DNA from: an uncultured bacterium
Lineage (GTDB): Bacteria; DAOPZR01
Reading direction: 5' to 3'
Assembly (NCBI GenBank): GCA_964637655.1
Contig: CAZWUZ010000008.1
Location: forward strand, 1 to 35,047
Length of the DNA: 35,047 bases
Part shown: positions 4,577 through 35,047 of the stretch, piece after piece
How the letters are laid out: every line of letters begins with the position of its first letter
How positions within the stretch are numbered: position 1 is the stretch's first letter
Notes under the pieces: model-generated
What the model saw: the letters and a program-made list of their open reading frames with translations, nothing else
The model's database searches: none
What the model was told of the DNA's origin: nothing
Made by a program: the position numbers and the translations under genes

Positions 4577-5450
4577 CGTTCTGATCGCACTGATCCTGAT
4601 TGTCTCCGTCAACGTGATGCCGGCGGTGTCGGCTGACGATCTGGCCACCCAGTGGCAGACCATCAGCCGCATCGAGGAAAAACTGGCCGGGCTGAACCGC
4701 GAGGCGGCGACGGTCAGGGCGCAGCTCGACGAAACGGGGCGGAAGATTGCGGCGCTCAAGCAGGACGGAGTGTCACTGCTCGAGGAAATACGCCTGAACG
4801 TGCTGCTGCGCGAGAGCCAGGACCAGGCCCAGCAGCTGGCGACGCTGGAAGGGACCATCCGCACGCTGGCGGACACGCGGCTGACGCTGGTCGATCGCGC
4901 GCTGCTGGCGGTCAACCGGGAACTGGCGCGGCGCGCGGAGCGGCTCAAGGCGTTGCAGGCGGCGGGCGACCATGCCGGGTTCACCCAGCTGCTGACGGAA
5001 CTGGTCGGCTATGACAACTTCAAGCGGGCGCTTGAGGAGCGGCGCGAACTGCGCCTGGCGCGCCCGGCGGTGACGCTGCAGGTGGCGGACTGGAATTCCC
5101 CCGCGGAAGTGCGGGAAAAAGCGCTGATTCTGCGCGACGAGATCCGCGGCGCGGAGCGCGAGCTGGCGCTGACGCGCACGCGCATCAGCGAGGGACTGGC
5201 GGAGATCCGGCAGAAGGAGGAGATCATCCGCTTCGTGCGCGACCTGCAGCAGCTGCGCAGCGAGCGCGTGTCGGTGGTCGACCCGGCGGTGATCCCCCAT
5301 CTCGAGCGCGAAGCGGAACGGCGGCGCGGGGAGATCGCGCAACTGCGGCAGTACCAGGGGACGCTGACGGTGGAACTGGCGCGCCTGCGCGAGCAGGGCG
5401 ACCGCCTGACGGCGTACGCGGACCGCATGGAACGGGAACTGCTGCGGTGA
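4566..5450 (+). CDS. Hypothetical exported coiled-coil protein
   Basis: N-terminal signal peptide (MMRSVLIALILIVSVNVMPAVSA), then a Leu/Glu/Arg heptad-rich helical body. Overlaps both neighbouring genes. Alternative start at ATG 4569. Confidence 0.85.
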   Translation: MMRSVLIALILIVSVNVMPAVSADDLATQWQTISRIEEKLAGLNREAATVRAQLDETGRKIAALKQDGVSLLEEIRLNVLLRESQDQAQQLATLEGTIRTLADTRLTLVDRALLAVNRELARRAERLKALQAAGDHAGFTQLLTELVGYDNFKRALEERRELRLARPAVTLQVADWNSPAEVREKALILRDEIRGAERELALTRTRISEGLAEIRQKEEIIRFVRDLQQLRSERVSVVDPAVIPHLEREAERRRGEIAQLRQYQGTLTVELARLREQGDRLTAYADRMERELLR

Positions 5451-8400
5451 AAAAACTTCTGCTGGCCGGCCTGCTGCTGCTGTGGGCGTCCGCGTCTGTC
5501 GCGGCTCCGTGGTGGGAGGTGCATTTCACCGAGCAGCGCAGCAACTCCAGTTCGGCCTACGAGCAGGAAATATACGACTTCATCATGCAGGCCAACAGTT
5601 CGGTCTGGGTGACCAGCTATACCTGGGGCAACTCCTCGCACAACAAGCTGATGCTGGCGCTGAACGAGTTATATGCGCGGGGGCTGGATATACGGCTGGT
5701 CGGCGATAACACGTCGGCGTTCAACTCGTACATGGACGACTATGAAAAGCGCACTGACGCTGCCGCGGCTGACGCTGCCAACCTGCACCACAACAAATTC
5801 ATCGTCCTCGACTACAATACTGCCAACGCCAGGGTGATGACGGGTTCGACCAACTGGACCGACCCCGCCTACGCCACGCAGAACAACGACATCCTGGCCA
5901 TCAACGACCGCAACGTGGCCAACGCCTACGGGCGTGAATTTCTCGAACTGTGGACGGGCAACTTCCGCAGCGGCCCGACCGATGTCAAGGACTACACGGT
6001 CAGCGGGCACGCGGTCAACCTCTATTTCGCGCCCGAGGACGACCCGGGCAACACCTACCTGTCGAACCTGTTGCGCAATGCCGAGCACTGTATTTTCTTC
6101 CTGTCGTTCAACCACCAGCTGACCGACCTGATGAACCGGGCCATCGAACTGAAGAACCGCGGGGGGATCGTCGAAGGGGCCTACGAATCGATTTACGGCA
6201 GCATGTTCAACGGCTACATGGCGGCAGGCATCGACATCCGCCAGGACGGTAATACCGACCATCTGCACAACAAGCTCTACATCGTCGACCTGGAGACGGT
6301 GGCGACCGGGTCGATGAATCACTCGAACACGTCCAGTACCAGCACCGACGAAAACGAACTTTTCATCCACGATTTCCGCCTCGCCCGCGAGTACATGAAG
6401 CACTTCCACTTCTGCTACGACCAGGCGAGCCCGCAGGTTGCCACCCCGACACACGAGGACAACGCCCCGGCCATTGTCACCAATCTCGGGGCGGTCGATA
6501 CCCCCAATGACACGGGGCAGAGCATCACCGTGTCGTGGACCGGGGTGAACGACGCCGACCTTGCCGGCTACTACGTGTATATCAGCACGTCAGCCATCGG
6601 CAGCGTCGAGAACCTGATCCCCGAGAAATTCGTGCAGGGGGCGACGTCGACCACGCTCACCACCTACAACCAGGACGACCCCATCAGCAATAACACCGAT
6701 TACTACGTCGCGGTGGCGAGTGTCGACTGGCATGGCAACGAGAATTACAGCTGCCCGACCACCGGCCCGGTGCAGGCCACGGGCGTGATTACCGGCGCCC
6801 GCCCGTCCGGCACCATCGACTTTTCCGATTCCACCAGTCATATTGCCGGCGAGGCCTCGACCCTGGTCGCGGTCATCCACAACGACACGGCGGCGGTTTC
6901 CGCCATTGCCACGCTCACCATCAGTTTCGGTTCCGCGTCAGCCGGACTGAGCTTCACCCCGGTGGCGGCCGGCAGTCAGACCCCGCCCGCGGGCTGGACC
7001 GTGGTTGCAGTCACGGACACCACCATCACCTACAGCGCCCTGCAGGCGGGCAACCGGATCGCCGCGGACGGCAGCGAGACGTTCACCATTGCGGTGACCA
7101 ACCCGGTGACCGCGGGGACCAGCAACGCTATCACGCTTGACGTGGTGGCGGCCAACAGCGAAGTAGCCGCCGGGGTGACGCTGAGCAGCGGCCTGGTCAC
7201 CATCGCGCCGAGCGCGGTCCCGCTCTTTACGCTCGCCTGGGGCGCGGGTTCGAGCCAGCGCGGCGGCAAAAACGCGACCCTCGCGGTGGGTATGCATAAC
7301 GAAGCGGGGGCCGGCACCTCCATCCGCGAGGTGACCTTCTCGTTCGGCGCGGGGAACGGCGCGTTTACCGCGCGCGGCAGCGATGTGCAGGTCGCGCCGG
7401 CCGGGTGGATGGCGAGCGGGTCGGGCAACACCCTGACCTTTACCGCGTCCGATACGGCCTACTATCTCGCGGCGGGTGACACGCTGACACTGTCGCTCGC
7501 GGTGATCAACCCCGGCATCAGCCGGGCGAGCGATGTCATCACCGCGACGACCACCGACCGCAACGGGCTGCAGGTTCCCGGGGTGACGGTCGGGTCACTG
7601 ACCGTGCAGGCCACGGACGGCATCGTTTTCAACGAGTTCATGTACAACCCCGTCGGCAGCGACGTGTTGTTCGAGTACGTGGAACTCTATAACCGTACCC
7701 CGGTGACGGTGGAACTGGGCGGCTGGCAGATGAGCGCCGGCGGCGCGGTGACGACCATTCCGGCCGGCACGACGCTGGCCGCCTACAAGTTTATCGTCAT
7801 CGCCAGCACGCTGTCGCGCGGCACGGCGGGCGATGAATTCTACGAGTCGTATTCCTCGCGCTACGGCAACGGTGACGGCATCTGGATTGTCGATCCGACG
7901 ACTCCCGGCGAGGACTATCAGGTCATTGACGGCACTGATTTCGACCTCAATGATGATGCCGACTTCCTGACCCTGACCAGCGCCGATGCGACCTTCACGA
8001 CGACCGTCCGCTACAACGATGCGCTCAACGAGTGGGGCGGGGCGGACGGCACGGGCGCCTCGCTCGAGAAGATCGACCCGTCGATCGATGACGTCGGGAT
8101 CGTCGAACTCGACGGCCCCAACTGGGGCGCGCAGCAGATGACCAGCACCTACCCGGACGGCACCCCGGGTGTCACCAACAGCATTGCCGTGTCGCAGGTG
8201 CCGCCGGTGACCGGCCTGTCAGTCCGTTCGGTGACGGAGAATTCCGTCACCCTCGCCTGGTCGCCGCTGACGGAGTTTGCCACGTTTGCCGGCTACCATG
8301 TCTACTACGCCACGGCCAGCCCGGTGACGGCGGGGGCACTGGTCTGGAACGCGGTGCAGGACCCCAACCTGGCGCTCATGGCGACCGGGCGCACCACGGT

Positions 8401-11400
8401 CACCGGACTGACCGCCAACACCACCTACTACTTCCGTCTCATCGCGCAGTCGACGCTCTCCGGGCCGGGTGACGTGAGCAGCGCGGATGAAGTGAGCACG
8501 CTGACAACCGTCACGACGGAGGTCACGGTCAACTACCTGTATGACGGCGTGCGGTATGCCACCACCTACGACGGCAGCGCCATCCTGCGCGACGTCGGGA
8601 CGACCATCAACCTCCGCCTGGCGTCACCGCCGGCCAATGCCGGCTCGGTCATGGTCTGGTATGACGTCGGGGCCGACCCGGACGGCAGCGCCACCGGCAA
8701 CAGCAGCGACCGGGCCGCCTATGCCGCGGGCAACGGCGTCACGTGGGATGCGGTCATTCCCGGCAACGATGCGGAAATCAACGACGGGGCCGAAGTCAGG
8801 TTCCTCGTCCAGATTGACGGTATCCCCTATTTCAACAACGGCCTGCCGTGGAAGTACCGGGTGGATGGCGGCATCAGCGCCAGCTTCACCGACCTGACCG
8901 CGGCCGGGGTCGGGTACGGGCGCATCGAACTGCGCTGGACCCCGGTGACGAACGTTCCCGATTTCGGCCAGTACCGCATCTACTACACCGCCGGGAGCGA
9001 GACCATCAGCATTCTTTCGCCGTCGTGGGATGCGGTGGATGATGTGATGCTCGCGCACAGCGCCACCGGCGCGACCGTCGTCTCCGGCCTGCAACCCGGC
9101 GGCATCTATCGCTTCCGCATCGTCGCGGTCGACCAGTACGGCAACGAATCGGATTTTGCCACCTCGAACGAGGCGACGGGTACGGCACAGCACGGCACGG
9201 TGATCATCACCGAGTTCGCGCCCGCAGGGGACACGCTCAGCAGCGCGCTGCCGTGGGTGGAACTCTACTGCGTCGAGGGGACGCAGGCGATGAACGGGTG
9301 GAATCTTACCGACCTGAACGGCAATACCGTCCCGGTCGGCGCGGTGACCATGAGCGCCGGCGAGTACCGGGTGGTCTACCTGACCGACTCGACGTTTTTT
9401 GCCGGTGACGGGGTGCTGGCGCTCGACGCGGACATGGATACCACCAACGGTTCGTATGCCGACGCGGTGGTCTGGACCGACGGCAACGGGGCCTTCAGCG
9501 CCGCCGACGCGGCGGATGTGCGCGCGCTTGGTGCCGGCAACTGGGAGTACAGCGTTTCCTATGCCGCGGCCACCCCGTGGATCAGCGAGTACTTCTCCGT
9601 TCCGTACACCGCCGGCGGTTTTTATTCCCTGGTGCGCGCGGAAATCGATGTCTACCGCGACCAGAACACGCGCAGCGACTGGCGCCTGCAATACACCCCG
9701 AGCAAGGGGGGGAGCAACGGGGTCAGCACGGTCGCCCTGCAGTCGTTTACGGACGGCTACCGCAGCGCTTATCCCGACGGCTACACCTACTTCCAGGATA
9801 CCACGGCCACGGCGGTGTTCGGGTTCGGCACCGCGCCGGCCGACAGCACCAACGTCCGCCTGTATTATAATTACGATGTCGTACCGACGGGCGACCCGGC
9901 GGGCGCGGACTCCTGGGTACTGCTGGCACCGCAAAGCGACCTGCTCACCTGGGGCGGGAGTTTCCCGGGGACCGGCAATCCCGCGGCCAACAGCGGGAAA
10001 CGCGTCAATTTCATCATCGCCGCCGACGGGGTTCCCTATTACCGCGACAATGTGCCGGGCGTGGCGTGGAGCTACCGCCTTGACGGCAGCGCGCCGGGTG
10101 CGGTCGGCGGCTTCAGTGTCGAGGGGGTGACGCAAAGCGCGGCCATCACCGCGTGGTCGCCGCCCGCGGTCATCGATGATTTCGCCACCTACCGCGTCTA
10201 CTACGCGGTCGCCCCGGGCCCGGGAACCACGGCCGCGGCGTATGTCGACAAGGCCACGGTGAGCGAACTGCACTACCGGACGACAGCGGGCGCGGTCATC
10301 GGCGGCCTGACCGCGGGGCAGACGTACGTGCTCGCCATTGCCGCGGTTGATGAACGGGGCAATGTCGGCGCGCTGTCGGGGATGGATCCGGCGGCCATCC
10401 GGCCGACACTGAGCGTGACGGCGCGGACCGTGAGCGACACGGCCGGCAACCGCGTGAACGGTGGTTTTGCCGGCAGCGACCGCCTGCGCGGGACCGACCT
10501 GCAGGTCGAGGTCTGGTTCAGCGAGGCCCCGGCGGCGACCCCGGTGCTCTGGCGGGACGGGATGGCGGCACCCGACGGGCCGGGCGGGAGCGCCAACGAC
10601 CGTTCCGGAACGATGACTGCGGGCAGCGATGCCCGGCTGTGGACCGCCACCATCCCCTGCACGGACGCCTCGATCGTCAACGACACCACGCTGCAGCTGG
10701 TGTTCAGCGTCAATACCACGGTGGTGCGCAACGGCAGCGTGCCGTTCAAGGTGTCTATCGATACCACCGCGGCACCGCTCAGCGCGCCGGCCGGGTTCTC
10801 CGTGGTCGGCACGCTGGCGGGCGGGGCGACCCTGTCGTGGAACCCCATCGCGGCGGCGGCTGATTTTGCCTCGTATCGCGTCTACTATGGTGCGGCCCCC
10901 GGCCCGCTGAGTGCGGGCGCGGCGTATATCGATAAGGCCGCGTACGCCGCGCTCGGCACGGTGACCACCGGCGGTGTCACCGTCACCGGACTGAACTTCG
11001 GCGACACCTACGTGTTCGCGGCGGCGGCAGCGGACGCGCTCGGCAATATCACCGCGCTGTCGAACCTCGATACCGGGCTCACGCTGGTGTCGCAGACCGT
11101 GTCGTCGCTGCAGCTGTCTGATACCGCGGGCAATACCGTGACCGCGGCTTTCGACGGGTCGCAGGCGCTGCGCCGTGCCGATGTGCAGGTCAGCATCGTG
11201 CTGGCCGAGGACGCGGCGGATACCCCGGTGGTCTGGTTTGACGTCGGGGCGGTGCCGGACGGCCCGGGCGGGGCCAACGGCGCCGACCGCAGCGTGACCA
11301 TGACCCGCACCGGTGACGCGAAAAACTGGGCAGCGACCATCCCGTATACGGACGGGGAGATGGTCGACGGCGCCACCGTGCAGGTGATCATCTTCACCAG

Positions 11401-16081: not shown

Positions 16082-16090
16082 CCGCGGCAG

Positions 16091-16119: not shown

Positions 16120-16157
16120 ATTCACGCTTTCGGGAAACTGAAGAGCGGCAGCACAAT

Positions 16158-16234
16158 GGGGGCGTGGTGCAGTGGTTTAGCACGTCGGCCTGTCAAGCCG
16201 AAGGTCGCGGGTTCAAATCCCGTCGTCCCCGCCA
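16158..16234 (+). tRNA. tRNA-Asp (anticodon GTC)
   Basis: Full cloverleaf: acceptor GGGGGCG/CGTCCCC, D stem GTGC/GCAC, anticodon stem TCGGC/GCCGA with loop CTGTCAA (GTC at 16192-16194), T arm GCGGG-TTCAAAT-CCCGT, discriminator G and encoded CCA. Confidence 0.97.
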
Positions 16235-16249
16235 TTTTTTTGTATCGGT

Positions 16250-16265
16250 TGCCGGAAATCCGGCA
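16250..16265. promoter_or_regulatory. Inverted repeat TGCCGG-AAAT-CCGGCA: candidate upstream activator sequence, or a weak terminator hairpin for the tRNA transcript
   Basis: GC-rich inverted repeat at the start of an AT-rich spacer, about 140 bp upstream of a -24/-12 motif. No clean U-tract follows it directly. Confidence 0.45.
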
Positions 16266-16403
16266 GTATGTTCTTGTGCTTTTCAATATAGGGGATTGTG
16301 TGAAGTTTTTTTTTGCGAATATATTCCACTAACAATCGTTTATCGCTATAAAAAATAATAAAATATGCAAAAAAATATCACTGAAAATACATGAATTAGC
16401 AAG

Positions 16404-16419
16404 AGGTATGTTTTTTGCT
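16404..16419 (+). promoter_or_regulatory. Candidate sigma-54 (-24/-12) promoter for the 5976-aa gene
   Basis: AGGTATGTTTTTTGCT, with GG at 16405-16406, N10, GC at 16417-16418 and a TTGCT -12 box; about 60 nt upstream of ATG 16482, which has SD GAGGAG at 16469-16474. Confidence 0.5.
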
Positions 16420-16481
16420 AACATACATCTATATTGGTATCTGCAAATACCATTAGCTGATTTTGGCTGAGGAGAAGCATT

Positions 16482-25400: not shown

Positions 25401-28400
25401 GTTTCCGATACGCACTCCGGGGCGGACTTCACCCGCACCACGCTGCGCCTCTATCAGGCGGGCGTGCAGGTCTCGGGCGGCACCGTGCCGGTGAGTGCGA
25501 CGACGCTGCGCCTCATCCTGGCCGCGCCGCTGGCCACCAGCGGGCAGTGCAGCATCGCCTACACGGTCTACGACAAGGCGGGCAACACGCGCACGGGGGC
25601 GGACACCTTCACCTTCGTGCAACTGGGTGACAGCAGCACCACCTTCTATCTGGTGACGACGGCGGGCCTGTCGATGGCTATCGATGACGGTGCGGATACC
25701 CGCTACGCCATCCGCTCGCTCTGGGTCAACATCCCCGACCCCAACGCGGGCAATGCCATCGCCCTCTACGATGCGCAGGGGGCGCTGGTGGCCTCTGATA
25801 CGACGGCCGGTGTTGCCGTCGACCAGTTCCGCAGCTGGGGAGTCAACGGCAACCTGACGGAGGGCAAGTACACCATCCGGGTAACGCAGCCCGATATGCT
25901 GCCCAACGTGGCGCAGGTGTCGTTTACGCTCGACACGACGCCGCCGACGATTACCACTTCGCCGGAGACCGGGGTCTACACGTCGAGCATTGATCCGGTC
26001 TATGCCTACATCGCGGACACGGCGACCCACGGCAATTACCCGTCCGGGGCCGACTATTACGGCTGCAGCATCACCCTGACCTGGCCGGGCGGCGTTGAGG
26101 GGCCGGCGGGCACGGTCGACGCGGCCAATGGCCGGGTCACCCTCTCCTCGCAGGTGGTGGCAACTGACGGCACGGAAGACGGCGCCGCTTCGCTGACGAT
26201 TACCGCGGTTGACGCGGTCGGCAACGCTGCCGTGCGCACGGTCAACTTCTTCTACGATTCGAAGGATCCCGCAGTCCGGGCCGCCGACCCGTACCTTTAC
26301 TGGACGTCAACCGACACCACACAGGCCTACCTGACGCTGAGCAACGGTTCGATTACCGAGCAGGACGTGGCGGTGGTGGCGGTGGCGCTCACCGACTCCT
26401 GGCTTGACCCGGCGCAGACGTCGGTCAAACTCTACAACAGCAGCAACACGCTGGTGGGCGGCACCGCCGGGCGCACGGGCGACACCTACTACTGGCGCCT
26501 GAGCAATCCGCTCAACACAGTCGGCGAAGCCGGAACCTACTACCTGCGCCTGACGGCCTACGACCTGGCCGGCAACGCGATCACCAGCCAGATCAGCTTC
26601 GCCTACTCGCCGGTGGACATCGAGCGCGACATTGTCGATTATGCCACCATTGAGGATACGCCAAGCAAGACGGGGGTGCAGACACGGCAGGTGGAGCCGG
26701 ACGGCGACTGGCTGCCGGTCCTGCGCCTGCGCCTGCGCGATACCAACCTCATCGCCTGGCTGCAGGGGCTGCGCGTCGATCTCGTCGATTCGGGGACGCC
26801 GGGCAACCTGAGCAGCAGCGACTTCACCCGGCGCACGGCGGCGGCAGGGAGCATTGTCGCCCTGTACAACGATGCCGGGTCGCGCACCGGCTACTTCGAC
26901 GCCGGGGACGCCCTGGTGGCCGCCAACTACCTGCTGCCGGAGAGCGGCTACGACACGGCCATCATCATCGCCCCGACGGCGCCGCAGCAGGTGCTCGACA
27001 CCTACACCTACTTCTACGTGGTGCTCAAGGGGAGCCGGAGCATGGACTTTGACGACGACTTCGTCGTCCGGGTGCCGCAGAACGGGCTCTTCCTCAACAT
27101 CGGGGCGAAGAACGACACGGCGTCGACGAACATCTACACGGCCAACATGCCGACGTTCTATAACGACCTGGTGACCGCCACCCCGCTCAACAGCAACTGT
27201 TCGACCGCGGTGATCGGCATCAGCGTGCACGACAATGTCGGCGGCAACGCCAATGCCATCCAGCAGGTGAAGGTGAAGTTCACCGGCGGTCCGAGTTTCA
27301 GCCAGTTCGACCTCGCCCCGCTGAGCAACGGTTCGGCCAGCGGCGTTTCGCTGTACCGCGACGACGGCGACGGGGTGTGGGATGCGGGCGACGTGTTCAT
27401 CGCCCCGAGCAGTGTGCCGACGTGGAGCTATCCGAACATCGCCACGCTCAACTTCAACAACGTCTTTGTCGGCGCGAACGTGCGCGGCGACTCGTACTTC
27501 GTGGTCGTCCGCACGAGCACGTCGATCCAGACGGGTGACACGTTCCAGGCAATCATCCCCGCCGAGGGGCTGATCTTCAACAACGGCGAGCGCGCGGAGA
27601 AGGGGTGCACCACCGCAGTCATCACCGCCAATGCCGACTACGATTCGCCGACCGGGCGCTTCACCGGTCCGGCCAACGGCAGTTTTCTCACCAACGACGC
27701 GCAGGTCAGCCAGACCAAGGCCGACCTGGTCTTCTTCATCGACAACACCTCGTCGATGCTGGGAGACATCACCGCGGTCAAAAACAACATCACCACGTTC
27801 GCCAACGATCTGGCGACCGCGGGGATCGACTACCAGCTGAGTTTGTACGCGTACAACGATCCGGGTGCGGCGCCGCCCGACACGTACGTCATCTACTACG
27901 GCAGCACCACCGACGTGAACACGTTCAAGGGCTGGGTGGCGCAGATTGACGCGCACAACGGCAACGCCCAGGACGAGATGGCCACCGAGGCGACGGTCGC
28001 GGCGCTGAACACCGGGGCCGATACGGCGGTGCCGTTCCGCTCGGGGGCGACCAAGTTCTTCATGTACTTCACCGATGGCGGCGTCTATGACAGCGTCGAG
28101 GGCGGGCCGTACACCCTGGACGAACTGCCGACGCTGCTGAACAGCAACCGGGTGACGCCGTACTTCATCTACAACCCGGCCAACCCGGCCAATCCGTCGG
28201 GCGGCGGCGGGCTGACCGCGGCTGACGAGTTCGAGCCGATCGCTCTGGCGACTGATGCGGAAACCGCCAACATCAGCACGGGGATTGCCACCATCCTCGA
28301 CAACCTGGCTGCATCCATCAGCACGAAACTGAGCGTGTCCCGCCTGATCGGCACCGCGCAGGATGAGGGCGGGGCCGGTCTGCGCGAGGTGCGCCTGGTC

Positions 28401-31400
28401 TACCAGAATGCCGCCACCGGCGTCTATGCCGCCGATTCGCTGACCGTGATTGCGACGCAGACGTCGGACGACAGCTGGTCGTGGTCGTTCAACATCCAGG
28501 CGCTGAACCTGGCGGACGGGCGCTACAACTTCTACCTCCTTGCATGGGACAACCTGGGGAACGGCGGCGACACCCTCGACACGCTGGTCATCAACATCGA
28601 CAGCACCAAGCCGCAGGTCGAGGTGCTGAACATCCTCAACCACAGCAACCTGCCGTACGGCATGCCCGGCATGCTGCAGTTCACCGGTCTGGCGCATGCC
28701 ACCGGCAGGTTCCTCAGCGGCGCCAGCGTGGCTGACACGGCCAGCATCAAGTCGGTGGAAGTGTCGACGGACAACAGCACGTGGAGCACGCTGGTGTTCG
28801 GCGGCGACGGCCTCGACAACGACGGTGACGGTCTCACGGAAGAGGAACCGGGGAGCAGTTTCGGCACCAACGACGACTGGCAGTTTGCCATCGCCGGTGT
28901 GCCGGGCGACTGGTGGTATGACGACCTGACCGGCCAGTCGGGCGTGTACGAACCGGGCATCGATGACGTCTACCTCGGGGTCTACCCCGATACCGGGTAC
29001 TACAAGGGCTCCAATGCCGTGCTGTCGGCAGGCGCCAACAACGTTGCTGACGCGGTCTTCGGCGGCCGGCTCTACGCGCTGTACGACGAGGATATCAGCG
29101 ACACTGACCGCACGGACGAGATCGTCCGCTGGGTGCACTGGTACCGGCCGCAGACCATCGGCGACGTCACGCTCTACTTCCGCGTGACCGACAATGCCGG
29201 CAACCAGACGGTACTGCCATACACCTTCACCTGCACGCAGTCGGTGTCAGCGACGGTGACGGACTACACGCTGAGCGCCGCCCCGGATACCCGCTACCTT
29301 GAATCGCTGTCGGAGCCGAAGGCGGTGCTGGCGCTCAACATCAGCGACGGGGCGGGCGGCACGGACAAAATCGACACGCTTGCGGTGCGCCTGACCAGTG
29401 TCAGCGGCACGTTCCGCAGCAGTGACCTGGCCGCGCTGGCGACAAACGCAACCAGCGGCGTGATGCTCTATGCCGACAACGGCTCGGTCAACGGCTTGTT
29501 CGACGCTGCCGACCAGCCGGTGGCACTCGCCATCACGCCGGTGTGGGCCTCGGGTGCCGCTCTCGCGGCAGGGGCCTGTGACACGGTTACCTTCGTCTTC
29601 GCCAGCGGGCTGGACATTCCGGATGGCGACCTGACCGCCGATTCCGGTCCGGACTACTTTGTCGTGGTGCGCAGCAGCGGCACCATCGGCTACAAGGACG
29701 ACTTTACGGTCAGCATCCCGGCCGGGAATATCACCCTGCTGTCGGGGCCGCTGTCGGCGACCGGCACGACGGGGACCATCACGGCCAAGGTGCCGGTGAC
29801 GGTGACGCCGCTGGCGACGGGCACGACCTGGGTCGGGCGCAGCGACTCGCAGGCGGTGCTGGCGTTCGCGGCGACTGACAACGCGGCCGGCGCGCCGGTG
29901 TTGTCGCAGCTGACCCTGACCTTTGCCAATGTCGGCGGCGATGCGGCCTTCACGCCTTCCGACCTGCAGCCGGTTACGGCCCTGGGCAGTTCGGCCACCG
30001 GCGGGGTGGGCATCTACACGACCAACTCGGTCGGGTTCCCGGCCTGGTTGAACATCAACACCGTCACCTGGGTGGGCAACACCCTGGTGCTGACGCTGTT
30101 CGAGGACGGGGTGGTGGCCCACGGCACCGAGACCTACACGGTCTATGTCCGGCCGGGTGCGACCATCAGCGACAACGACGACTTCACCGTGGCGATTGCG
30201 TCCGACGGCATCCAGTTCACCGATGGCGGCAACCGCACCCCGGTCTGCACGAAAACCGGGACGACGGGCACGATTATCGCCGACGGCACGAATCCGTCGA
30301 TCAGCGGTGCCGGGGCGGTGCTGCTCAATAACCAGGTTGTGCTCGACAACCAGACAGAGACCGTGTACCAGTTCACCAACGTTACCGTGGCTTCGGCCAA
30401 GGTCCATGATGCCCTCTCCGGGTTGCAGGCCGCTTTCTCCCGGCTGGCAATCGATACCGACATGGTGGCACCGTCACCTGCCGGCGAGTATTATCATGAC
30501 GGCAACGGCACGCTGTTCTGGCTGAGCAATCCGTACGCGGAAACCCGCGCACTGACCACGGCGGCGGTGCAGACAACGCTCAGCCGGGTGGTGGAGGACG
30601 CTAATTCACTGGTTGTGCGCGACGGGGACTACCGGGATGTTACCGCTCTGCTGGGGGCGGCCGCGACACGCGGGTCTAACCGGGTTACCTTTACGAGCAT
30701 CAGTGTCGCCGACTCGGGGATTTACACATTCCTGTATGACCCGGTGGCGCTGGATACGCCTCCGGGCAACTACCTGGCGGTACTCTCCCTGATGGATGTG
30801 GCGGGGAACCAGTCGACGGAGACCTACCCGTTTGTGTTCAAGCAGGGTGACGTGGTCAATCCTGAAGTTCTTTCGCTCAATCCGGCCGGGAGCGACGTGG
30901 TCGGCTCGCTGAGCAAGGTGGCAATGCTGGTCTATGACGCGCAGGCGGGCATTGACTACAACCGTTCTACCCTGACGCTGACCGGTCCGCTGGGCGCCAT
31001 CAGCACCAGCAAGGACTTCAACAGCACGACGGGCAAGTTCGACGCGTTGCTCAATACGGCGCTGGCTGCAGACGGCACGGCGGATGGTACGTACCAGTTC
31101 GTATACCGCTTGTACGACAATGCCGGCAACCTGACCAGCGACACCATCAGTTTCACCTACAACTCGTCGCTGCCGCAGGTACTCAATGGCGTTGAGGATG
31201 CGGCGACAACGCGCAAGGCCGGGGACGTCATCACCATCAAGATAGGGTGTGTCGAGTCGCGCTCCGAGCGCAACCTGATGCTGGTCTCGGCGGGAACGGA
31301 CAGCTACGTGGTGCTTGACCCGCCGGATACGCGCTGGATGGCGGCGGATACCTCGCTGTACACCATGCGGACGGTGTCTTCAGCCTCCCAGACCTACAGC

Positions 31401-34400
31401 GATGCGTCCTCGTGGCGGCTTGATTACCATGCGGGGAGCAACCGGATGCGGGCGTATGCCCCGGCCGGGTCGAGCGTACGCGCTGTGCCTGCCGGCGACA
31501 GTTTGTCCGCGACCTACACGTACCCGTCAACCTACGGTGCGGCGACCGCGGACATCGGCCAGCTGATCCAGGGGATCACCCTCTACGACGACGGTGATTC
31601 GCTCATTGATGGCAGCGGGTCGGATGGCGGCGACGAGCGCCGGCATGACGGATATTACACCGGGCGCTACACCGTACAGCCGGGAATCAACACGACGGCG
31701 GCGGAAGTGACCGGTAAATTCAGCAACCGGGTCAATCAGGCAGCGGATGCCTTGACGTTTGGCTCTGTTTCCATCGACTCGCTGGAACCGGCGCTCTCGG
31801 GTCTGACGGCGTCCCCGGTGGTCTTCAATCCGCAGCAAAATGAGGTGACGCAGATCCGCTTCCGCGTCAACGAGGCCTGTGCGGCAATCACGGTCAACTT
31901 TACGGATTCCACCGGGGTGACGGTGCGCACCATTGCGCTGGGGAGCAGCACGCAGAATGAAATCACCCTGTCGTGGAACGGGCGGAACAATGTCGGACAG
32001 ATATTGTCGCCCGGGGTGTATCCGTACACGATTACGGTCAGCGACCTGCTGGGCAACAGCGCCTCGATCAACGCTTCGGTGACGATCTCCTACGTGACGC
32101 TGACCGTGGAGAACATCCGCCTGACGCGCAGTACCATGCTGCTGCCGATCAACGACGGGGTGGGCGACGTTACTCAGGTGTCGCTGGATGTCTATATGCG
32201 CAACGCCGATACGCCGTCGCTTTGGGCGATGGGCCTGACCTATGTCGACGATTCGCTGGGGACGGTGCTGACCGACAGTCTCGGCAGGGCCGTTCCCGGC
32301 GGCATGGATGCCGACGTCGAGCCGTATGCGCTGATCAACGTTTCTCTCTACCAGAGCGACGGGACGCTGGTTCGCGTTCTTGATAATGATTACACAGCCG
32401 GTGTGGATATGGACGATGTCTACTGCTTTGAAGTCGGGCCCGGGGACGACAATACGGGGAATGACTACGACAATCTGGTGCAACTCAGGGATGCGGCCAA
32501 CGGGGTCTCCGGTGACGGAATCTTCATGGGGACGTTGGCCTTTGAATTGATTACGGCGTTGCCGACCGAAGGCACCTACCTGCTGGTGGCGCAGTACGAA
32601 CTGGTGCGCAAGGACATTGTTCCCTCCGGTCTGACAGGGTACCATGCCAAACCGGGGTATATCACCGGCAAGCAGACGAACCCGGATAACCCGGCCTCGA
32701 CGGCAATCCGCGTTTCGACGCTTAATGCGCCGGAGGATGATGCGACGCCGCCGCAGGTGAGTCTGGTAAAAATCACGCAGAGCGGTGGTGACGAGGCAAA
32801 CATCACTGCGGCGACGCCGACCCTGTATCAAGGCGTTACGCGGGCCACCGTGATTCTCGACGACGGGTTTGACGGCTCCGGCCTCGATCTCGCCAATTCC
32901 ACCATCCGGATGAAGGGACCGAACAGCACCCTGCTGGCCGGCACGCAGAACAACGACGGGAGCAGCAGCATCTGGTGGCAACTGAGCAACACGGCGCTGG
33001 AACCGGGCGCGTACACGGTTGAGGTTGTCGGCAGGGACAATGCGTCGAATGCGGGGGCGATGTCGACCTATTCCTTCACGCTCGGCGACTTCCAGCCGCC
33101 GTCGGTCATCTCGTGGACGTACAACAGCGGCCAACCGCTGACCACCAATGCGCAGGTGGCGGCGACCATCAGCAAGGTGTCGGCAACGCTGCAGGACCAG
33201 GTGTATGGCGGCGGGTTGAATCTGGCTGCCTGTACCATCGGTCTGTACGATGCCAACGGCATACTGGTGAGCGGGGCGCAGAGCAGTGACAGCATTGCCA
33301 CCCTCACCTGGACGTTGAGCCCCACGCTGCCGCAGTCGACGCAAGTCGACAGCAGTTATCAGGTGCGGGTTGCCGCGGTTGACGCCAGTGGCAATGATTC
33401 GCAGTACACGCTCAACTTCACGCAGCAACGCCAGGCCAATGCCAGCAACATCACGCTGGCGGCTAACTCGTTCGGTTGCACCCCGGGGGTGATTTCTCCG
33501 AACGGTGACGGCCGGCAGGACGTGGCACAGATCTCGTTCATTGCCACCTCCTGTGACACCATCGTGCCGGTGCTGCAGTTCTTCAACGGCATCAATGCGT
33601 TCAGCACAGTTGATACCTCGGCCAGTGCGATGGGACGTCTTGATTCGACCGTGCTGGGCGGCGGTCTTTCGCGGTACAGCGTCACGTGGAACCCGGGCGC
33701 AGCGCTCACCGTCGGCGTGTACAACGTCGAGGTGAAACTGGGGAATCGGATCAACGGCAACATCGTGCCCTATCCGACAAGCCTGGGGTGGATTATCTGG
33801 GACACGCTCATCGACACGCCGTCCGTGACGGCGCCGACCGACAGCGCCACGGTAAGCAGCAACAGCCTGACGTACGCGCTGACCGTGGAAGGCACCTACG
33901 CCACCAGCGGCGACAGCGTGTACGTGCGGACGACGACGGCGGCGGGCGGGGTCACCACGACGGCGCTGGCCATCAGCGGCAGCGCCTACACGACCGCGGT
34001 GACCATCACCAGCGGCTGGAACACCATCGAGGTCTGGTCGGCCGATACCGCCGGCAATGTCAGCGGCATCACCACGCGACGGGTGCGCCTGGTCAACGGC
34101 TCGAGTGCCACCGACCTGACGGTCACCATCGGCAACGGCACCGACCGCGAACCGGTGCTCAACGTCGGGGAAAACCTGACCATTGGTTTGCCGTACGGCA
34201 CCACGGCCGGCGGGCTCAACATCTACTCGACCGACGGGCGCGTGGTCGGGAGCGTGCAGGCGGTGGACAGCGACGGTGACGGGTATGTCGACCGGGTCGT
34301 CTGGAACGGCACGGGCAACAACATCGTCGGTGGGGTACATGTCTTCAAACTGCAGTACACCTTGAACGGGCAGGTCTATGTGGAAACCTTCCCGCTGGCC

Positions 34401-34412
34401 ATCGTGCCGTGA
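16482..34412 (+). CDS. Giant secreted surface/adhesin-like protein, 5976 aa: ~11 acidic beta-repeat domains, FlgD-Ig and other Ig-like domains, vWA domain, Ca-binding-like loops, C-terminal sorting-like domain
   Basis: SD plus ATG; signal peptide (MKKMANYLWAQLLIMSIVLLTTGAAHA); SPNGD(G) FlgD-Ig motifs near 22640, 22960, 23620 and 33490, plus FNP...WNGRN near 31820; vWA DLVFFIDNTSSM...FTDGG (27720-28330); DGIDNDFDGVIDE and DGLDNDGDGLTEE; LYDDG...DGYYTG near 31580; tail IYSTDGRVV...WNG...GVHVFKL...LAIVP. Confidence 0.93.
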   Translation: MKKMANYLWAQLLIMSIVLLTTGAAHAGVNVSSITKVSSGSNIAMGGWATLFSFTVTNTDTANATFNTFNISVTPASVSSCSPPIVNVAISAGSPGINPQTAINMLSETITVGDVITDGSSTTYYIAVQAKGDGLQDEDKFTVTVSNFTFTRYTGPFTATRTQSYDLTVEMGFSAILGEGYYWTIPAHSHPVALFEFGDMSGSGQFVTSVDPPGGNTTINEFNLTIVDTDAVAKYAMLSAMGEFGNVSSGETIPNPTNIQLNDLYTSLVISNFKNIAIYEDVDGNHCWTPSDRIVGSPTITYGIDPLTGLHKINLKSTVAVPESDDDSTYLLCIATASGWGENKVGYGDEFSVYIDSIVMNTSHPVVDDSMSVAGGGDGEVKSGMLYTVVGPITTYSDSKFTPSIDGRALDVTRGVRMLDVFFGLPTEDPVTGNTNNTFLDFIPDAVLGIDATGGPSQPWLQEVSNWPAASSQALEQIRICFEHGGSRRFSPSDLRALTGDKHSGVQVYRDYNPPSGAGSDESRNGMLDPLDELIPIAVSDCIWTEFDTGAELKLVLDNGEKLPLTGWHSTYNTRLGASSTINNAGPDFFVTILLSEDADYGDSFTVRVPGGGLTFSNGTSNPTPKTLSVLSDTFLVSVPTMFYDMTEYWANPGEITERSEPYAVLGLNVSDTPTDTAYLKSVGIYIQNISGGTDFTVDDLMPLGDTIYSGVALYRDCDTHPQNTNGQFDPGIDICLPLNGTESWAFGQYNDHYNDHFTRLTVADSTFTSVPNDDLGANGGPDFFIVIRTSSTASNGHDFRVKMVDPAAVVFENASGAVSSISFHNADPATNGIIAYYDPTATYYAAGSLPPAWLVLESWDPAYTHDWWSFTSNTIRITAISALSIEDYTIPGQLVDVQSDAVPVFGINISDGTDGNELLTGVTVRVSDGGTAGNFTTSDLAALTSGLASGISLYQDNGDSHGIFDANDDIVQCGTLNWTANGEVTLAPTAGVAIPDDDSGNNAGADFFVVFRTSASINYLDDFVLSLVPRGVQTNLSYSDPTVTDTTHVLTCRVPTFLTDLTTSEQKIGASSDPFAVIGINMNDQLNNLADGQDTFAKLTVAFSNIGGDLAFTSSDLAALLNDTSSGISVWIDQGSNNVGSFDRNTDLMVPLTVAPVWSGIGDSLVVLLDIADQAIPGNDTGDNAGVDFYVVIRSSGSISYDDNFSVSVVPQGVEYFSGKSLKTLTTNSITSNAVTSTELTDLVGSGGAWIESHGDTLPIIGINVYDAPSGSEYISQITLRFRNTGTALGVFDDSDLAALSSDVLGGIQLYRDDGTTDGQFDAADSLIPLNGAQSFSPLGMASDSYQVTIMPFSTDDVQLPADNVTDGNVGPDFYIVVKTSSTMQYGDDFFVELEQNGISYSAGPAADTIATGVITCRVPTVITDLATETGSVYKRDNSDTFAILGINTWDNGRDVHLKTVKVTFTNVSGFTLSDLNVALYRDAGAANGVLDALDTPLLTTQSSNQNVLTLTLAATGTDSSVPNTDAGVDQGADFLVVIGTTGSANWKSGDRFTYAIAPGGLEFETAAQTITSQRSGYSANSIIGDITPPNFVSTTTTDADRVYRSGDTLTFTSKWTEAVTVVALFPDTTMVGSNQGNGNFYFSYPVPTPVTGLGDTQIWVIATDAQGNTVANNTYGVEFDTDGPSFVTWGWGDTPPIYSDGDTVTLYASFNADAGADAYGTDSIVVTADFSAVDSAFDTANVTVTRLAADRWKITYVISSGNTKADADTIHVRLLAHDYANYASDTGAWLKLDNTGPQITAVTWLPTTGDQNVRNSKVVHFTFNVNETTDTTRTVVDFGQVDAGYLAANVATVSPNGTFYDITYTVTAGNTRQDNEQIAVSITLYDAAGNMTTDSATVRVNLDNTNPSALITSPADSTAFNSSPISIFGTANDPDGNSAIDGKQASEVAAVRLRVIADTGAGLTVLPGYGDTTAFSTADTAAGELAYSKWQFVFRPTDTGTYYLSTVAVDQAGNPVAYASAFADTTVIRYLPAQADLLPPTISNLQASPSPFSPNGDGVKDTTYIQYSLSEQCATATITLKNSSNSTVRVLTGDTGAGANEVAWNGRHTDGYILPDGLYTFTVRAVDPGGNSAQLSGSVRIATALPTITSVSATPSEISPNGDGINENSTISFTVGNMASSELLGNLTYTKTAGSASVATTWANPVYTPVSPSKLALVTQEPFTYSVSVTVQGTDANGFAVSDQFTITANTAANTIITTDNGIAFQTVSSLSVANSGAATGDAFAYDAKLYTNVGSALLRVVDALGASVTSSVVLSPTFIGAGTYTGQWPAGAQADGVYTYQITVIDDFGNEAAASGNITCASTRIELSGVGATPYTTISPNGDLVRDNTFITYTINKPAQVTVQIFSGATAVTTLQADTTTRAAGTYAAQWDGDTNGILPSVASGEYTARVTAYDPALNESVLGEVTITVDNERPDTPVIISPRQEATGDGNSDGLPGIGGFDDDNDGAADAADPEVLAATTDATRDGIDNDFDGVIDEATETYVAAWDDNENGMHEEPYFVASTPVSVTGTAEANSTVTAFINGGSAGSATTDAFTSFTIANVALSEGLNRLTVRATDGAGNVGNVTTQQRIVLDSIEPAIDYVVAETTVIAAAETVRTTVTQFIVFLDDGALGSGVDWTNSSVTLYKDNAPQPVTVTAAYSVTYSRWCLTVVPTTALTSIGNNGNYELRVSARDRLGNSGTENFAFTYQNLTPVISTPATGTTVDNVSVSVTGQALATSSVYLQYSSDSGATWTSTDSVAAHATLNLFSKTLTLPAADGAYTLRAYSELAGAVSDYSNSVVVYLNRTFPTVAISSPADESDTNGYPMVITAQLTAGASPTYVRFGADLNGDGSSDTYYYDAVQPFQWLFYPPTPNREYTFRTWVSKGGDTGSASSAVDVMYDTVLPTVISVPSAGSYITDTPTYVEIIVSDTHSGADFTRTTLRLYQAGVQVSGGTVPVSATTLRLILAAPLATSGQCSIAYTVYDKAGNTRTGADTFTFVQLGDSSTTFYLVTTAGLSMAIDDGADTRYAIRSLWVNIPDPNAGNAIALYDAQGALVASDTTAGVAVDQFRSWGVNGNLTEGKYTIRVTQPDMLPNVAQVSFTLDTTPPTITTSPETGVYTSSIDPVYAYIADTATHGNYPSGADYYGCSITLTWPGGVEGPAGTVDAANGRVTLSSQVVATDGTEDGAASLTITAVDAVGNAAVRTVNFFYDSKDPAVRAADPYLYWTSTDTTQAYLTLSNGSITEQDVAVVAVALTDSWLDPAQTSVKLYNSSNTLVGGTAGRTGDTYYWRLSNPLNTVGEAGTYYLRLTAYDLAGNAITSQISFAYSPVDIERDIVDYATIEDTPSKTGVQTRQVEPDGDWLPVLRLRLRDTNLIAWLQGLRVDLVDSGTPGNLSSSDFTRRTAAAGSIVALYNDAGSRTGYFDAGDALVAANYLLPESGYDTAIIIAPTAPQQVLDTYTYFYVVLKGSRSMDFDDDFVVRVPQNGLFLNIGAKNDTASTNIYTANMPTFYNDLVTATPLNSNCSTAVIGISVHDNVGGNANAIQQVKVKFTGGPSFSQFDLAPLSNGSASGVSLYRDDGDGVWDAGDVFIAPSSVPTWSYPNIATLNFNNVFVGANVRGDSYFVVVRTSTSIQTGDTFQAIIPAEGLIFNNGERAEKGCTTAVITANADYDSPTGRFTGPANGSFLTNDAQVSQTKADLVFFIDNTSSMLGDITAVKNNITTFANDLATAGIDYQLSLYAYNDPGAAPPDTYVIYYGSTTDVNTFKGWVAQIDAHNGNAQDEMATEATVAALNTGADTAVPFRSGATKFFMYFTDGGVYDSVEGGPYTLDELPTLLNSNRVTPYFIYNPANPANPSGGGGLTAADEFEPIALATDAETANISTGIATILDNLAASISTKLSVSRLIGTAQDEGGAGLREVRLVYQNAATGVYAADSLTVIATQTSDDSWSWSFNIQALNLADGRYNFYLLAWDNLGNGGDTLDTLVINIDSTKPQVEVLNILNHSNLPYGMPGMLQFTGLAHATGRFLSGASVADTASIKSVEVSTDNSTWSTLVFGGDGLDNDGDGLTEEEPGSSFGTNDDWQFAIAGVPGDWWYDDLTGQSGVYEPGIDDVYLGVYPDTGYYKGSNAVLSAGANNVADAVFGGRLYALYDEDISDTDRTDEIVRWVHWYRPQTIGDVTLYFRVTDNAGNQTVLPYTFTCTQSVSATVTDYTLSAAPDTRYLESLSEPKAVLALNISDGAGGTDKIDTLAVRLTSVSGTFRSSDLAALATNATSGVMLYADNGSVNGLFDAADQPVALAITPVWASGAALAAGACDTVTFVFASGLDIPDGDLTADSGPDYFVVVRSSGTIGYKDDFTVSIPAGNITLLSGPLSATGTTGTITAKVPVTVTPLATGTTWVGRSDSQAVLAFAATDNAAGAPVLSQLTLTFANVGGDAAFTPSDLQPVTALGSSATGGVGIYTTNSVGFPAWLNINTVTWVGNTLVLTLFEDGVVAHGTETYTVYVRPGATISDNDDFTVAIASDGIQFTDGGNRTPVCTKTGTTGTIIADGTNPSISGAGAVLLNNQVVLDNQTETVYQFTNVTVASAKVHDALSGLQAAFSRLAIDTDMVAPSPAGEYYHDGNGTLFWLSNPYAETRALTTAAVQTTLSRVVEDANSLVVRDGDYRDVTALLGAAATRGSNRVTFTSISVADSGIYTFLYDPVALDTPPGNYLAVLSLMDVAGNQSTETYPFVFKQGDVVNPEVLSLNPAGSDVVGSLSKVAMLVYDAQAGIDYNRSTLTLTGPLGAISTSKDFNSTTGKFDALLNTALAADGTADGTYQFVYRLYDNAGNLTSDTISFTYNSSLPQVLNGVEDAATTRKAGDVITIKIGCVESRSERNLMLVSAGTDSYVVLDPPDTRWMAADTSLYTMRTVSSASQTYSDASSWRLDYHAGSNRMRAYAPAGSSVRAVPAGDSLSATYTYPSTYGAATADIGQLIQGITLYDDGDSLIDGSGSDGGDERRHDGYYTGRYTVQPGINTTAAEVTGKFSNRVNQAADALTFGSVSIDSLEPALSGLTASPVVFNPQQNEVTQIRFRVNEACAAITVNFTDSTGVTVRTIALGSSTQNEITLSWNGRNNVGQILSPGVYPYTITVSDLLGNSASINASVTISYVTLTVENIRLTRSTMLLPINDGVGDVTQVSLDVYMRNADTPSLWAMGLTYVDDSLGTVLTDSLGRAVPGGMDADVEPYALINVSLYQSDGTLVRVLDNDYTAGVDMDDVYCFEVGPGDDNTGNDYDNLVQLRDAANGVSGDGIFMGTLAFELITALPTEGTYLLVAQYELVRKDIVPSGLTGYHAKPGYITGKQTNPDNPASTAIRVSTLNAPEDDATPPQVSLVKITQSGGDEANITAATPTLYQGVTRATVILDDGFDGSGLDLANSTIRMKGPNSTLLAGTQNNDGSSSIWWQLSNTALEPGAYTVEVVGRDNASNAGAMSTYSFTLGDFQPPSVISWTYNSGQPLTTNAQVAATISKVSATLQDQVYGGGLNLAACTIGLYDANGILVSGAQSSDSIATLTWTLSPTLPQSTQVDSSYQVRVAAVDASGNDSQYTLNFTQQRQANASNITLAANSFGCTPGVISPNGDGRQDVAQISFIATSCDTIVPVLQFFNGINAFSTVDTSASAMGRLDSTVLGGGLSRYSVTWNPGAALTVGVYNVEVKLGNRINGNIVPYPTSLGWIIWDTLIDTPSVTAPTDSATVSSNSLTYALTVEGTYATSGDSVYVRTTTAAGGVTTTALAISGSAYTTAVTITSGWNTIEVWSADTAGNVSGITTRRVRLVNGSSATDLTVTIGNGTDREPVLNVGENLTIGLPYGTTAGGLNIYSTDGRVVGSVQAVDSDGDGYVDRVVWNGTGNNIVGGVHVFKLQYTLNGQVYVETFPLAIVP
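17050..30290 (+). repeat. About 11 copies of an ~170-190-aa acidic domain in the 5976-aa protein (protein-level repeat)
   Basis: Consensus V.GIN..D...L..(V/I).V.F...F..SDLA.L....SG(I/V).LY.D.G..G.FD..D...P.D..G...G.DF(F/Y)VV.R(T/S)S....Y.DDF.V...G. Seven copies lie in 17050-21240, two in 26625-27635 and two in 29250-30290. Confidence 0.85.
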
Positions 34413-34423
34413 GGAGGATGGCC

Positions 34424-35047
34424 ATGCACACCGGGAAGAAGCGGGGGAGAGCGATGAAGGGACTGACTCTGATGGCGGCGGTGGCACTGCTGCTGGCAGC
34501 GGCGCTGCCGGCGGCGGCGGCCGACTTCCTCGTGGGGGCGCGCCCGCTGGGCATGGGGAGCGCCTACACGGCGATGGACGGTGACGTCAACTGCGTGCCG
34601 TGGAATCCCGCGGGACTGGCGACGGTGAACACGTTGCAGTTCACCAGTATGTACGCCGACCTCTACGAACTGAACTTCCTCAAGGAGAGCAACTTCGCGC
34701 TGGCGGTGCCGCTCGGCCGCGACCGCGGGGTGGCGGGTATCGGCTACTCGGCGCTGTCGATCGACTACGACTACCCGTCGTACTTCAACCTCAACACGCT
34801 GACCTGGCGCGACAGCGAACTCCGCCTGTCGTATGCCCGCCCGCTCAACAGCACGGTCAATCTCGGGGCGACGTTCAACTGGCTCTCCACGGTCTCCAAT
34901 GTGCAGGGGGGGCAGATGCAGGGGTACTCGTTCGACCTCGGGGTGACTGGTCAGGTCATGCCGCAGCTCACCCTCGGGGCGTCCTTCACCGATCTGCTCG
35001 CGCGCCGCAACTGGGACAGCGGTACGGATGAAAAGCCCGGAACCGGT
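34424..35047 (+). CDS. PorV/PorQ-family (FadL-like) outer-membrane beta-barrel protein, 3'-truncated at the window edge; absent from the ORF track
   Basis: Hand translation from ATG 34424 (SD AGGAGG at 34412-34417; alternative in-frame ATG 34454): MHTGKKRGRAMKGLTLMAAVALLLAAALPAAAADFLVGARPLGMGSAYTAMDGDVNCVPWNPAGLA...SELRLSYAR...VNLGATFNW...GYSFDLGV...LTLGASFTDL. It has a signal peptide, the GAR..GMG.A..A...D....WNPAGL motif and amphipathic strands, with no stop before 35047. Confidence 0.88.
   Translation, partial: MHTGKKRGRAMKGLTLMAAVALLLAAALPAAAADFLVGARPLGMGSAYTAMDGDVNCVPWNPAGLATVNTLQFTSMYADLYELNFLKESNFALAVPLGRDRGVAGIGYSALSIDYDYPSYFNLNTLTWRDSELRLSYARPLNSTVNLGATFNWLSTVSNVQGGQMQGYSFDLGVTGQVMPQLTLGASFTDLLARRNWDSGTDEKPGTG

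Follow-up and report, generated by a model that had tools for sequence, protein, structure and literature searches.

A candidate type IX secretion-like translocon module with PorV-family barrels paired to secreted-type cargo in a diderm bacterium outside Bacteroidota

In the type IX system of protein secretion (T9SS) of Flavobacterium johnsoniae, the tail of a cargo protein binds the loops of its carrier inside the SprA translocon and exits together with that carrier (PMC10994853). For type B cargo of the same organism, cognate and gene-linked PorP/SprF shuttles have been demonstrated (SprB-SprF, Fjoh_3952-3951), orphan cargo uses an orphan carrier, and cargo stays on its carrier, some being wall-tethered via a periplasmic partner (PMC12618676). 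In Bacteroidota, a track pulls through cysteines of SprF and PorG (PMC12635249). The T9SS has been described as confined to the Fibrobacterota-Chlorobi-Bacteroidota (FCB) group (PMC11205867) and SprA as FCB-specific, with presence implied in six of the seven FCB phyla (PMC12611786), and the available parts of PMC7323717 and PMC8542988 hold nothing on a T9SS outside FCB. We found no published description of such a system beyond this group in a literature in which subscription journals were thinly covered. Genes of this kind may already carry a name such as 'PorV/PorQ family protein', which databases assign automatically. Here we analyze a 35,047-nucleotide stretch (the window) that forms the entire contig C8 (CAZWUZ010000008.1, assembly GCA_964637655.1) of an uncultured bacterium of the GTDB lineage DAOPZR01, together with the rest of this host genome (G000) and a sister genome (G001) from the same family and phylum and another genus; C-numbers denote contigs and L-numbers sequence stretches. 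The window encodes two giant secreted-type proteins, giant 1 and giant 2, and the start of an outer-membrane barrel, which a sequence-only reading had taken for a pathway of the C-terminal domain (CTD)/PorV type in a diderm outside Bacteroidota. SprA, PorV-family barrels and CTDs were all found, as this proposal would have it, and a canonical motor was not detectable. The window probably belongs to an outer-membrane pathway of export and display that is T9SS-like, in which the translocon module is retained and the energy chain of Bacteroidota is missing.

A search of the genome for sprA, suggested by the sequence-only reading, was successful: contig C146 encodes a 1890-aa SprA homologue. A 29-sequence profile of this protein aligns positions 83-1690 of 1720 to F. 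johnsoniae SprA (6H3I_A, E=2.4e-166) and retrieves only SprA chains from the PDB, and the orthologue in G001 is 70% identical. Named SprA-like homologues with 23-28% identity come from Elusimicrobia (two), TA06, Gemmatimonadetes and Zixibacteria, most of the matching rows carrying no name. The gene (L005:246-9641, on C146; L115 in G001, on C17) lies head-to-head with lptF/G and adjoins a long tetratricopeptide repeat (TPR) gene, which is likewise found upstream of SprA in G001 and whose product might be an SprE-like partner.

The host genome contains 16 PorV-family genes and three C-terminal fragments, and 13 genes exceed the cut-off of the PorV model NF033709. A CTD gene directly precedes eleven of the 16. 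Of the other five, two are situated at most 200 nt from a contig end, and three have no such gene before them, with an N-gap upstream in one case; for G001, 11 barrel genes were fetched, 10 of which come after a CTD gene. The suggestion of a dedicated barrel for each cargo thus holds as a genome-wide rule. As our lineage CTD profile was seeded with tails picked for their adjoining barrels, we used the library hidden Markov model (HMM) TIGR04183 for the adjacency statistic; it has 14 matches in G000, 13 of them over cut-off with giant 1 included, and 10 of the 14 lie at most 600 nt upstream of a barrel (expected, about 0.001 per site). Five strong tails, giant 1 among them, lack an adjoining barrel match. 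For 21 pairs, the identity matrices of tails and barrels are correlated (rho 0.77; none of 2000 permutations as high), also within each genome (0.86 in G000 and 0.75 in G001). The same nearest neighbor is shared by tail and barrel in 12 of the 21 pairs, several clades recur in both trees, and in both genomes the most divergent tail pairs with one of the two most divergent barrels. The passengers of these cargo proteins include beta-helices, FG-GAP repeats, an M4 peptidase and Ig stalks. One divergent barrel is fused to an uncharacterized domain with a DCDD motif and to TPRs (L017:1-1890, G000 C88; L117:1484-4276), and its partner tail lacks YPNP and ends in LMNK. The three barrel fragments (C232:3256-3417, C232:4229-4501 and C12:16985-17467), one of which contains a stop, resemble the C25/C232 paralogues and point to recent events of duplication or recombination between such genes.

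These results bear on the possibility that the barrels are surface anchors or folding partners only, the cargo crossing by another route (type II or assisted by the β-barrel assembly machinery) and SprA being otherwise employed or serving only some of the cargo. SprA is indeed unlinked to any cargo-barrel pair, with lptF/G and TPR genes at its flanks, and FadL-family barrels can anchor proteins, as BamG does for BamH (PMC12611786). However, both genomes possess SprA together with PorV-family barrels and CTDs, and the sole demonstrated role of SprA in the literature consulted for this comparison is T9SS export, so that we regard this alternative as improbable.

The barrel gene of the window starts 11 nt past the stop codon of giant 2 (ATG at 34424, preceded by GAGGAGG) and encodes the WNPAGL motif, both as first described. 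It is cut by the contig end, and its full-length form is supplied by the database protein P0031, which matches 200 of its 208 residues; full-length relatives have 545-573 aa. An AlphaFold2 model of P0031 (predicted local distance difference test, pLDDT, 85) begins with a hatch at the N-terminus, continues with 14 strands and a Pro-rich linker of low confidence, and closes with an alpha/beta domain. The 14-stranded barrel with its NPA hatch is a fold common to FadL/TodX and PorV. Foldseek ranked PorV first for the model, VIA gave PorV a Z score of 31.4 with a root-mean-square deviation (rmsd) of 3.1-3.3, and the last domain matched FlgT and TolB-N (VIA Z 15, rmsd 2.1-2.3). A 101-sequence barrel profile found PorV in the PDB at 4e-32 and FadL-type proteins at 1.6e-3 (CymD) or worse, and PorV (E=0.024) was the sole PDB match of a six-sequence profile; a single-sequence PDB search with the G001 barrel gave no match, so that profiles were needed. 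On profile and model, the window barrel is a divergent 14-stranded relative of PorV with a TolB-N-like tail, and from the topology of the barrel this C-terminal domain would be periplasmic.

Both giant proteins end in tails with the pattern IY..G..V..W..G(I/V)(Y/H), giant 1 also having YPNP and a terminal KIAVIR, as the sequence-only reading had noted. The HMM scan that it had proposed for both tails succeeded for giant 1, which passes TIGR04183 (26 bits, cut-off 23), and failed for giant 2, which matches no NCBIfam model at E<=0.1. With a lineage CTD profile built without window sequences, the giant 1 tail scores E=3e-13 and is by sequence a conventional type-A-like CTD. The giant 2 tail reaches E=0.67 with the lineage-specific profile (rank 17 of 12,725 open reading frame (ORF) tails), and the tail of its G001 orthologue has 16.1 bits with TIGR04183. 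The best model of the giant 2 tail is an Ig-like sandwich (pLDDT 78) that aligns with the FspA-CTD over 75 of 75 residues (Z 8.0, rmsd 2.1), followed by the CTDs of NucA (Z 7.6) and mirolase (7.4), PorZ (7.0) and the RemA-CTD (6.9). When searched against the PDB, the tail profile gave PorZ and PorU as its best matches. In another reading, the barrel would be a small-molecule transporter of the FadL/UPF0164 type, and the tails would be Ig domains of the ordinary, FlgD-like sort. For such a reading speak the tie in fold with FadL/CymD, the several paralogues that pass UPF0164, a match of the tail profile to FlgD at 1.5e-5, and the Treponema FadL-like barrels with periplasmic TPR extensions that have been described as transporters (PMC8407342). 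Nonetheless, the barrel profile matches PorV about 28 orders of magnitude better than it does FadL-type proteins, and a transporter leaves the tight pairing, the matched divergence with CTD genes and SprA unexplained. We therefore consider it very improbable, and the plain FadL transporter, which the sequence-only reading had named as a challenge to its own proposal, is disfavored by sequence.

A T9SS-like translocon raises the question of its energization. No GldL, GldM or GldN was found in G000 or G001 while the Flavobacterium control was positive, the one GldM match in G001 (E=0.043) being at chance level. In G000, the GldK model found a lone FGE-sulfatase-like ORF (54 bits against a cut-off of 350), and full-length PorU models matched CTD regions alone. 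Peptidase C25 (PF01364) was not detected in either genome, with positive controls. DUF6089, which we take to be PorG, was absent from both, again with a positive Flavobacterium control. The PorP model TIGR03519 gave at best 25-28 bits against 90.55, on PorV-family genes, in a search in which no positive control matched. A complete canonical T9SS in a Bacteroidota relative, which would have made the locus a familiar one, is thus not what we see, as motor, ring and sortase were not detected. GldL, GldM and GldN were also not found in a Zixibacteria bin (G003, via L082) and a Gemmatimonadetes bin (G004, via L081), whose completeness is not given and in which SprA was not searched; G003 has two C25 peptidases. 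Motor-less sets may therefore occur inside FCB too.

It is possible, and overlaps with the explanation we prefer, that the system is energized, either by a motor that has diverged beyond the reach of the GldL/M/N models or by one taken over from elsewhere (ExbBD/TonB-type or a flagellar-type stator) acting on the periplasmic tails of the barrels. Export would then proceed as we propose, with a system that is motor-less in appearance only. Cargo release in F. johnsoniae needs energy, and SprF and PorG couple to the track via cysteines (PMC12635249). In the host, barrels on C1, C13, C24 and C39 carry TPR tails, the window barrel has its TolB-N fold, and an ExbB/ExbD pair lies behind a TPR gene on C301. 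On the other hand, there are only two MotA/ExbB (PF01618) matches per genome, one of those in G000 looks like a flagellar MotAB, the barrel, CTD and SprA matches of G000 all lie on contigs other than these two, and the negative GldL/M/N searches were made with a working control.

The host genome (3.99 Mb, 90.6% complete) has 65% GC, in agreement with the high GC noted for the window, and with G001 makes up a GTDB phylum of two genomes only. We placed it with a single marker, RpoB, in trees of 80 and 35 rows (the smaller set being 34 hand-picked from the 80 loci) whose sampling holds no Elusimicrobiota, Spirochaetota or Fibrobacterota. Host RpoB has at most 62% identity to any row of the 35-row tree, and in both trees it forms a long branch outside a fully supported (100%) FCB clade. 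Approximately unbiased (AU) tests rejected its grouping with Bacteroidota and Kryptonia (p=0.001) and with the Gemmatimonadota/Zixibacteria group (p=0.001), whereas a forced position as sister to all FCB was not rejected (p=0.15; one marker, long branch). The long branch could not be broken, because RpoB of G001 was not found with the query used. By RpoB sequence, the host is outside Bacteroidota, as had been claimed. BamA, together with lpxD/lpxC/lpxA-like ORFs recognized by eye, indicates a lipopolysaccharide-containing diderm. Mis-binning was rejected because G001 likewise contains SprA, the barrels and the entire locus, with identities of about 60-78% once the variable N-terminal part of giant 2 is set aside.

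Several observations weigh against the reading as a T9SS-like pathway. The SprA homologue scores 164.9 bits with TIGR04189, below the family cut-off of 200, and a single-sequence PDB search with it gave no match. The barrel, for which an HMM check had been suggested, is of the PorV family by profile and remains below the NF033709 cut-off of 90 (48 bits for the window fragment, 58.7 for P0031); by fold, PorV ties with CymD/FadL (VIA Z 30.8-30.6), a tie that the profile values given above resolve toward PorV. The giant 2 tail is weak by sequence, only one of its five models exceeds pLDDT 60 (the other four have 47-60), and the alignment behind the model held canonical tails, which biases it. Furthermore, the model ties with generic Ig folds (CopC, Z 8.2), and Foldseek returned mostly such folds, with PorZ at rank 34. 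Mirror trees also arise by co-duplication of neighbors without binding. Both genomes are fragmented and about 90% complete, and the GldK and full-length PorU models were run on G000 only. Finally, release of cargo from SprA depends on the motor in F. johnsoniae (PMC10994853), so that a motor-less version is left without a known release step.

All genes of the window lie on the + strand, and the first five overlap by 4-13 nt. Its features are as follows:

1..1332 (+), C-terminal part of a UvrD/PcrA helicase (Pfam UvrD_C, TIGR01073), the first of the overlapping gene run; same order in G001
1320..3200 (+), membrane sensor histidine kinase (HAMP, PAS, HisKA, HATPase); syntenic in G001
3197..4576 (+), NtrC/AtoC-type sigma-54 activator, one of 16 PF00158 matches in G000
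4566..5450 (+), 294-aa signal-peptide-like, coiled-coil-like protein whose gene overlaps the start of giant 1
5447..16081 (+), giant 1, 3544 aa
16091..16119 (+), TTGACA-17-TATAAG sigma-70-like promoter, best assigned to the tRNA
16158..16234 (+), tRNA-Asp(GTC), found by ARAGORN; same position in G001
16248..16267 (+), terminator-like hairpin after the tRNA; stem conserved in G001
16404..16419 (+), sigma-54-like GG-N10-GC site, 78 nt upstream of giant 2; conserved in G001
16482..34412 (+), giant 2, 5976 aa
34424..35047 (+), divergent PorV-family barrel, N-terminal 208 aa, cut by the contig end
L007:5898-6305 (G000 C13 17897-18304) and L116:5589-6059, outside the window, stand-alone protein of about 135 aa (signal-like N-terminus and CTD only), encoded in both genomes between the genes for a giant cargo and the barrel of that cargo; it may act as a plug or decoy

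In G001, a single contig holds the genes from UvrD to the start of giant 2, and a second one the giant 2 end with a full 551-aa barrel; the order kinase-activator-giant 1-tRNA-giant 2 is kept across the two genera. The tRNA-Asp and the hairpin (one found against 0.5 expected in shuffles, weak alone) divide the region into two units, and no barrel gene adjoins giant 1, which does not support the view of a single locus with two cargos for one barrel. Strong Shine-Dalgarno sequences had been attributed to the window as a whole; they precede giant 2 and the barrel, whereas those of the kinase, the activator, the 294-aa ORF and giant 1, each of which overlaps its upstream neighbor, are weak or missing. 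The 294-aa protein has no Pfam match and eight sequence homologues, counting itself, all 64-100% identical; look-alikes by feature (0.92-0.93, with a low recognition score, and therefore weak evidence) fall in Gemmatimonadota/Fidelibacterota clusters.

The two giant ORFs have signal-peptide-like N-termini when judged by eye, as previously stated. Giant 1 contains two HKD motifs (residues 115 and 274), lamin-tail domains and fn3 and Big_1 repeats ahead of its CTD; the HKD region belongs to the phospholipase D superfamily and is probably of the nuclease type, and the protein would probably be an extracellular nuclease or phosphodiesterase on a long stalk. Its G001 orthologue is 59-65% identical and lies in two frames, with a break near residue 2024 (L113:13190-13220) that coincides with no N run and is either an assembly error or a real frameshift. 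Giant 2 consists of Ig-like repeats (Big_13, internal FlgD_ig/CHU_C), a VWA domain and the divergent CTD-like tail, and is 35-67% identical to its G001 orthologue. Its first ~1200 codons (16482-~20080) have a third-position GC content of 0.47-0.54, against 0.79-0.92 for the remainder and 0.70-0.78 over the same part of the orthologue, and this N-terminus is the least conserved part of the protein (35%). Its composition suggests that the distal end beside the tRNA was recently exchanged. An assembly chimera was judged unlikely because the segment is colinear with G001 at 35-56% identity. Further ORFs of 2700-5000 aa are found in G000 (C11:11507-20998, C13:1-15015, and on C119, C17, C174 and C79); these are absent among the CTD-profile matches, some being perhaps cut by contig ends or frameshifts.

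The sequence-only reading had assigned the TTGACA-17-TATAAG promoter to the export locus and had envisaged sigma-54 control by the adjacent kinase/NtrC pair. The promoter sits directly upstream of the tRNA-Asp, which had been missed, and G001 has kept its TTGACA box ahead of this tRNA; it failed the rule of the promoter scanner and is, from its position, best assigned to the tRNA. Sigma-54 control has some support for giant 2 only. The 16-mer GG-N10-TTGC has the spacing of a -24/-12 element and is identical in 14 of 15 bases in G001, at 80 nt from the ATG there compared with 78 nt in G000, in otherwise poorly conserved DNA, and 2 of 300 shuffles reach a 14-base match at any offset. The site departs from the sigma-54 consensus, with 297 of 2570 scanned upstream regions scoring as well or better, and a strict pattern scan of the window gave two matches against 3.4 expected. 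A gene recognized by eye as pspA has a near-canonical site in the same scan. The conservation rests on two genomes, because a metagenome scan with the giant 1 C-terminus confirmed none of 201 candidates. Nothing was listed as holding RNA from positions 14000-20000, an outcome that carries no information on expression. Altogether, sigma-54 control of giant 2 is plausible, with the case evenly balanced, and giant 2 and the barrel would probably share a sigma-54-type promoter.

Nothing ties the site to the neighboring activator, and regulation by the adjacent pair is not shown because each genome has 16 PF00158 matches. That this pair activates the giant 2-barrel operon from the conserved site appears unlikely to us. 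In its favor, rpoN is present, the site is kept in sequence and position while its surroundings diverge, and the gene order is common to two genera; against it stand the many PF00158 matches, the non-consensus site, the absence of an identified enhancer, and a perfect TTGACA-17-TATAAT upstream of giant 2 in G001. Moreover, among 12 other cargo genes scored, only giant 1 reaches 17, with a match inside the upstream coding sequence.

For the T9SS-like pathway that we favor, we infer secretion and tail-barrel binding by analogy to F. johnsoniae. Cargo would cross the inner membrane by Sec, its tail would bind the loops of its own barrel docked at the lateral opening of SprA, and the pair would leave the SprA pore together. 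As PorU was not found, a cargo protein without a sortase would retain its tail and stay on the barrel as a surface anchor. The periplasmic extension of the barrel, TolB-N-like here and TPR in several paralogues, would tether it or couple it to an energizer. Giant 2 would use the adjacent divergent barrel, and giant 1, with its canonical tail, an orphan or shared one. It is tempting to speculate further that a non-FCB diderm runs a working SprA translocon without Gld/Por motor, hub or sortase, carrying cargo of up to ~6000 residues on private, co-evolved PorV-family barrels, in which a fused periplasmic domain takes the place of the energy chain or wall tether; we hold this only tentatively, at slightly less than an even chance. 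If true, the translocon-carrier-tail module would predate the rotary T9SS and be more widely distributed than it, and the specificity of carriers would be encoded naturally in the paralogous tail-barrel pairs. A genome that combines SprA with numerous carriers and cargos, and in which no motor is recognizable, would bear on the origin of the translocon and on an alternative drive for release, and the 21 tail-barrel pairs that occur naturally, with the strongly divergent one of the window among them, make carrier-cargo recognition, an open question in the field (PMC12618676), directly testable.

Among known systems, the Omnitrophota giants (bioRxiv 10.1101/2023.11.21.568195) are likewise giant secreted-type proteins of candidate-phylum bacteria; they differ by their many transmembrane segments, SecA domains and location near type II secretion genes, and the available part of that preprint makes no mention of T9SS, PorV or FlgD. 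The FadL-like proteins of Treponema pallidum (TP0548, TP0859, TP0865) resemble the host barrels, by description, as multiple 14-stranded FadL-fold paralogues with periplasmic helical/TPR tails outside FCB; unlike the latter, they are read as nutrient transporters, with no CTD cargo pairing described in the available text (PMC8407342). As in the type B pairs of F. johnsoniae, cargo and carrier genes are linked and specific (PMC12618676), whereas the carriers here are PorV-family proteins, none of which exceeds the TIGR03519 cut-off, their cargo has tails of a type-A/FlgD-like kind, and the periplasmic module forms one polypeptide with the barrel. The F. johnsoniae T9SS core (SprA, PorV and type A CTD; 6H3I, 8GL6, 8GLJ, 8GLK; PMC10994853) shares with the host SprA homology over most of its length, 14-stranded PorV-family barrels with an NPA hatch, and CTD-like Ig tails on secreted-type proteins. 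It differs in that GldL/M/N, PorU and DUF6089 were not found here, in the host, which is outside Bacteroidota, and in the size of SprA (~1890 aa here versus 2403 aa). By this likeness, the set would work like a T9SS translocon module, and it departs from a canonical T9SS in motor, ring and sortase. In F. johnsoniae, one PorV is shared by all type A cargo, whereas the host has 16 PorV-family paralogues, several with C-terminal TPR or TolB-N extensions. That tagged giant cargo, a matched carrier and the SprA pore come with no recognizable motor suggests that the outer-membrane half of the machine works differently here.

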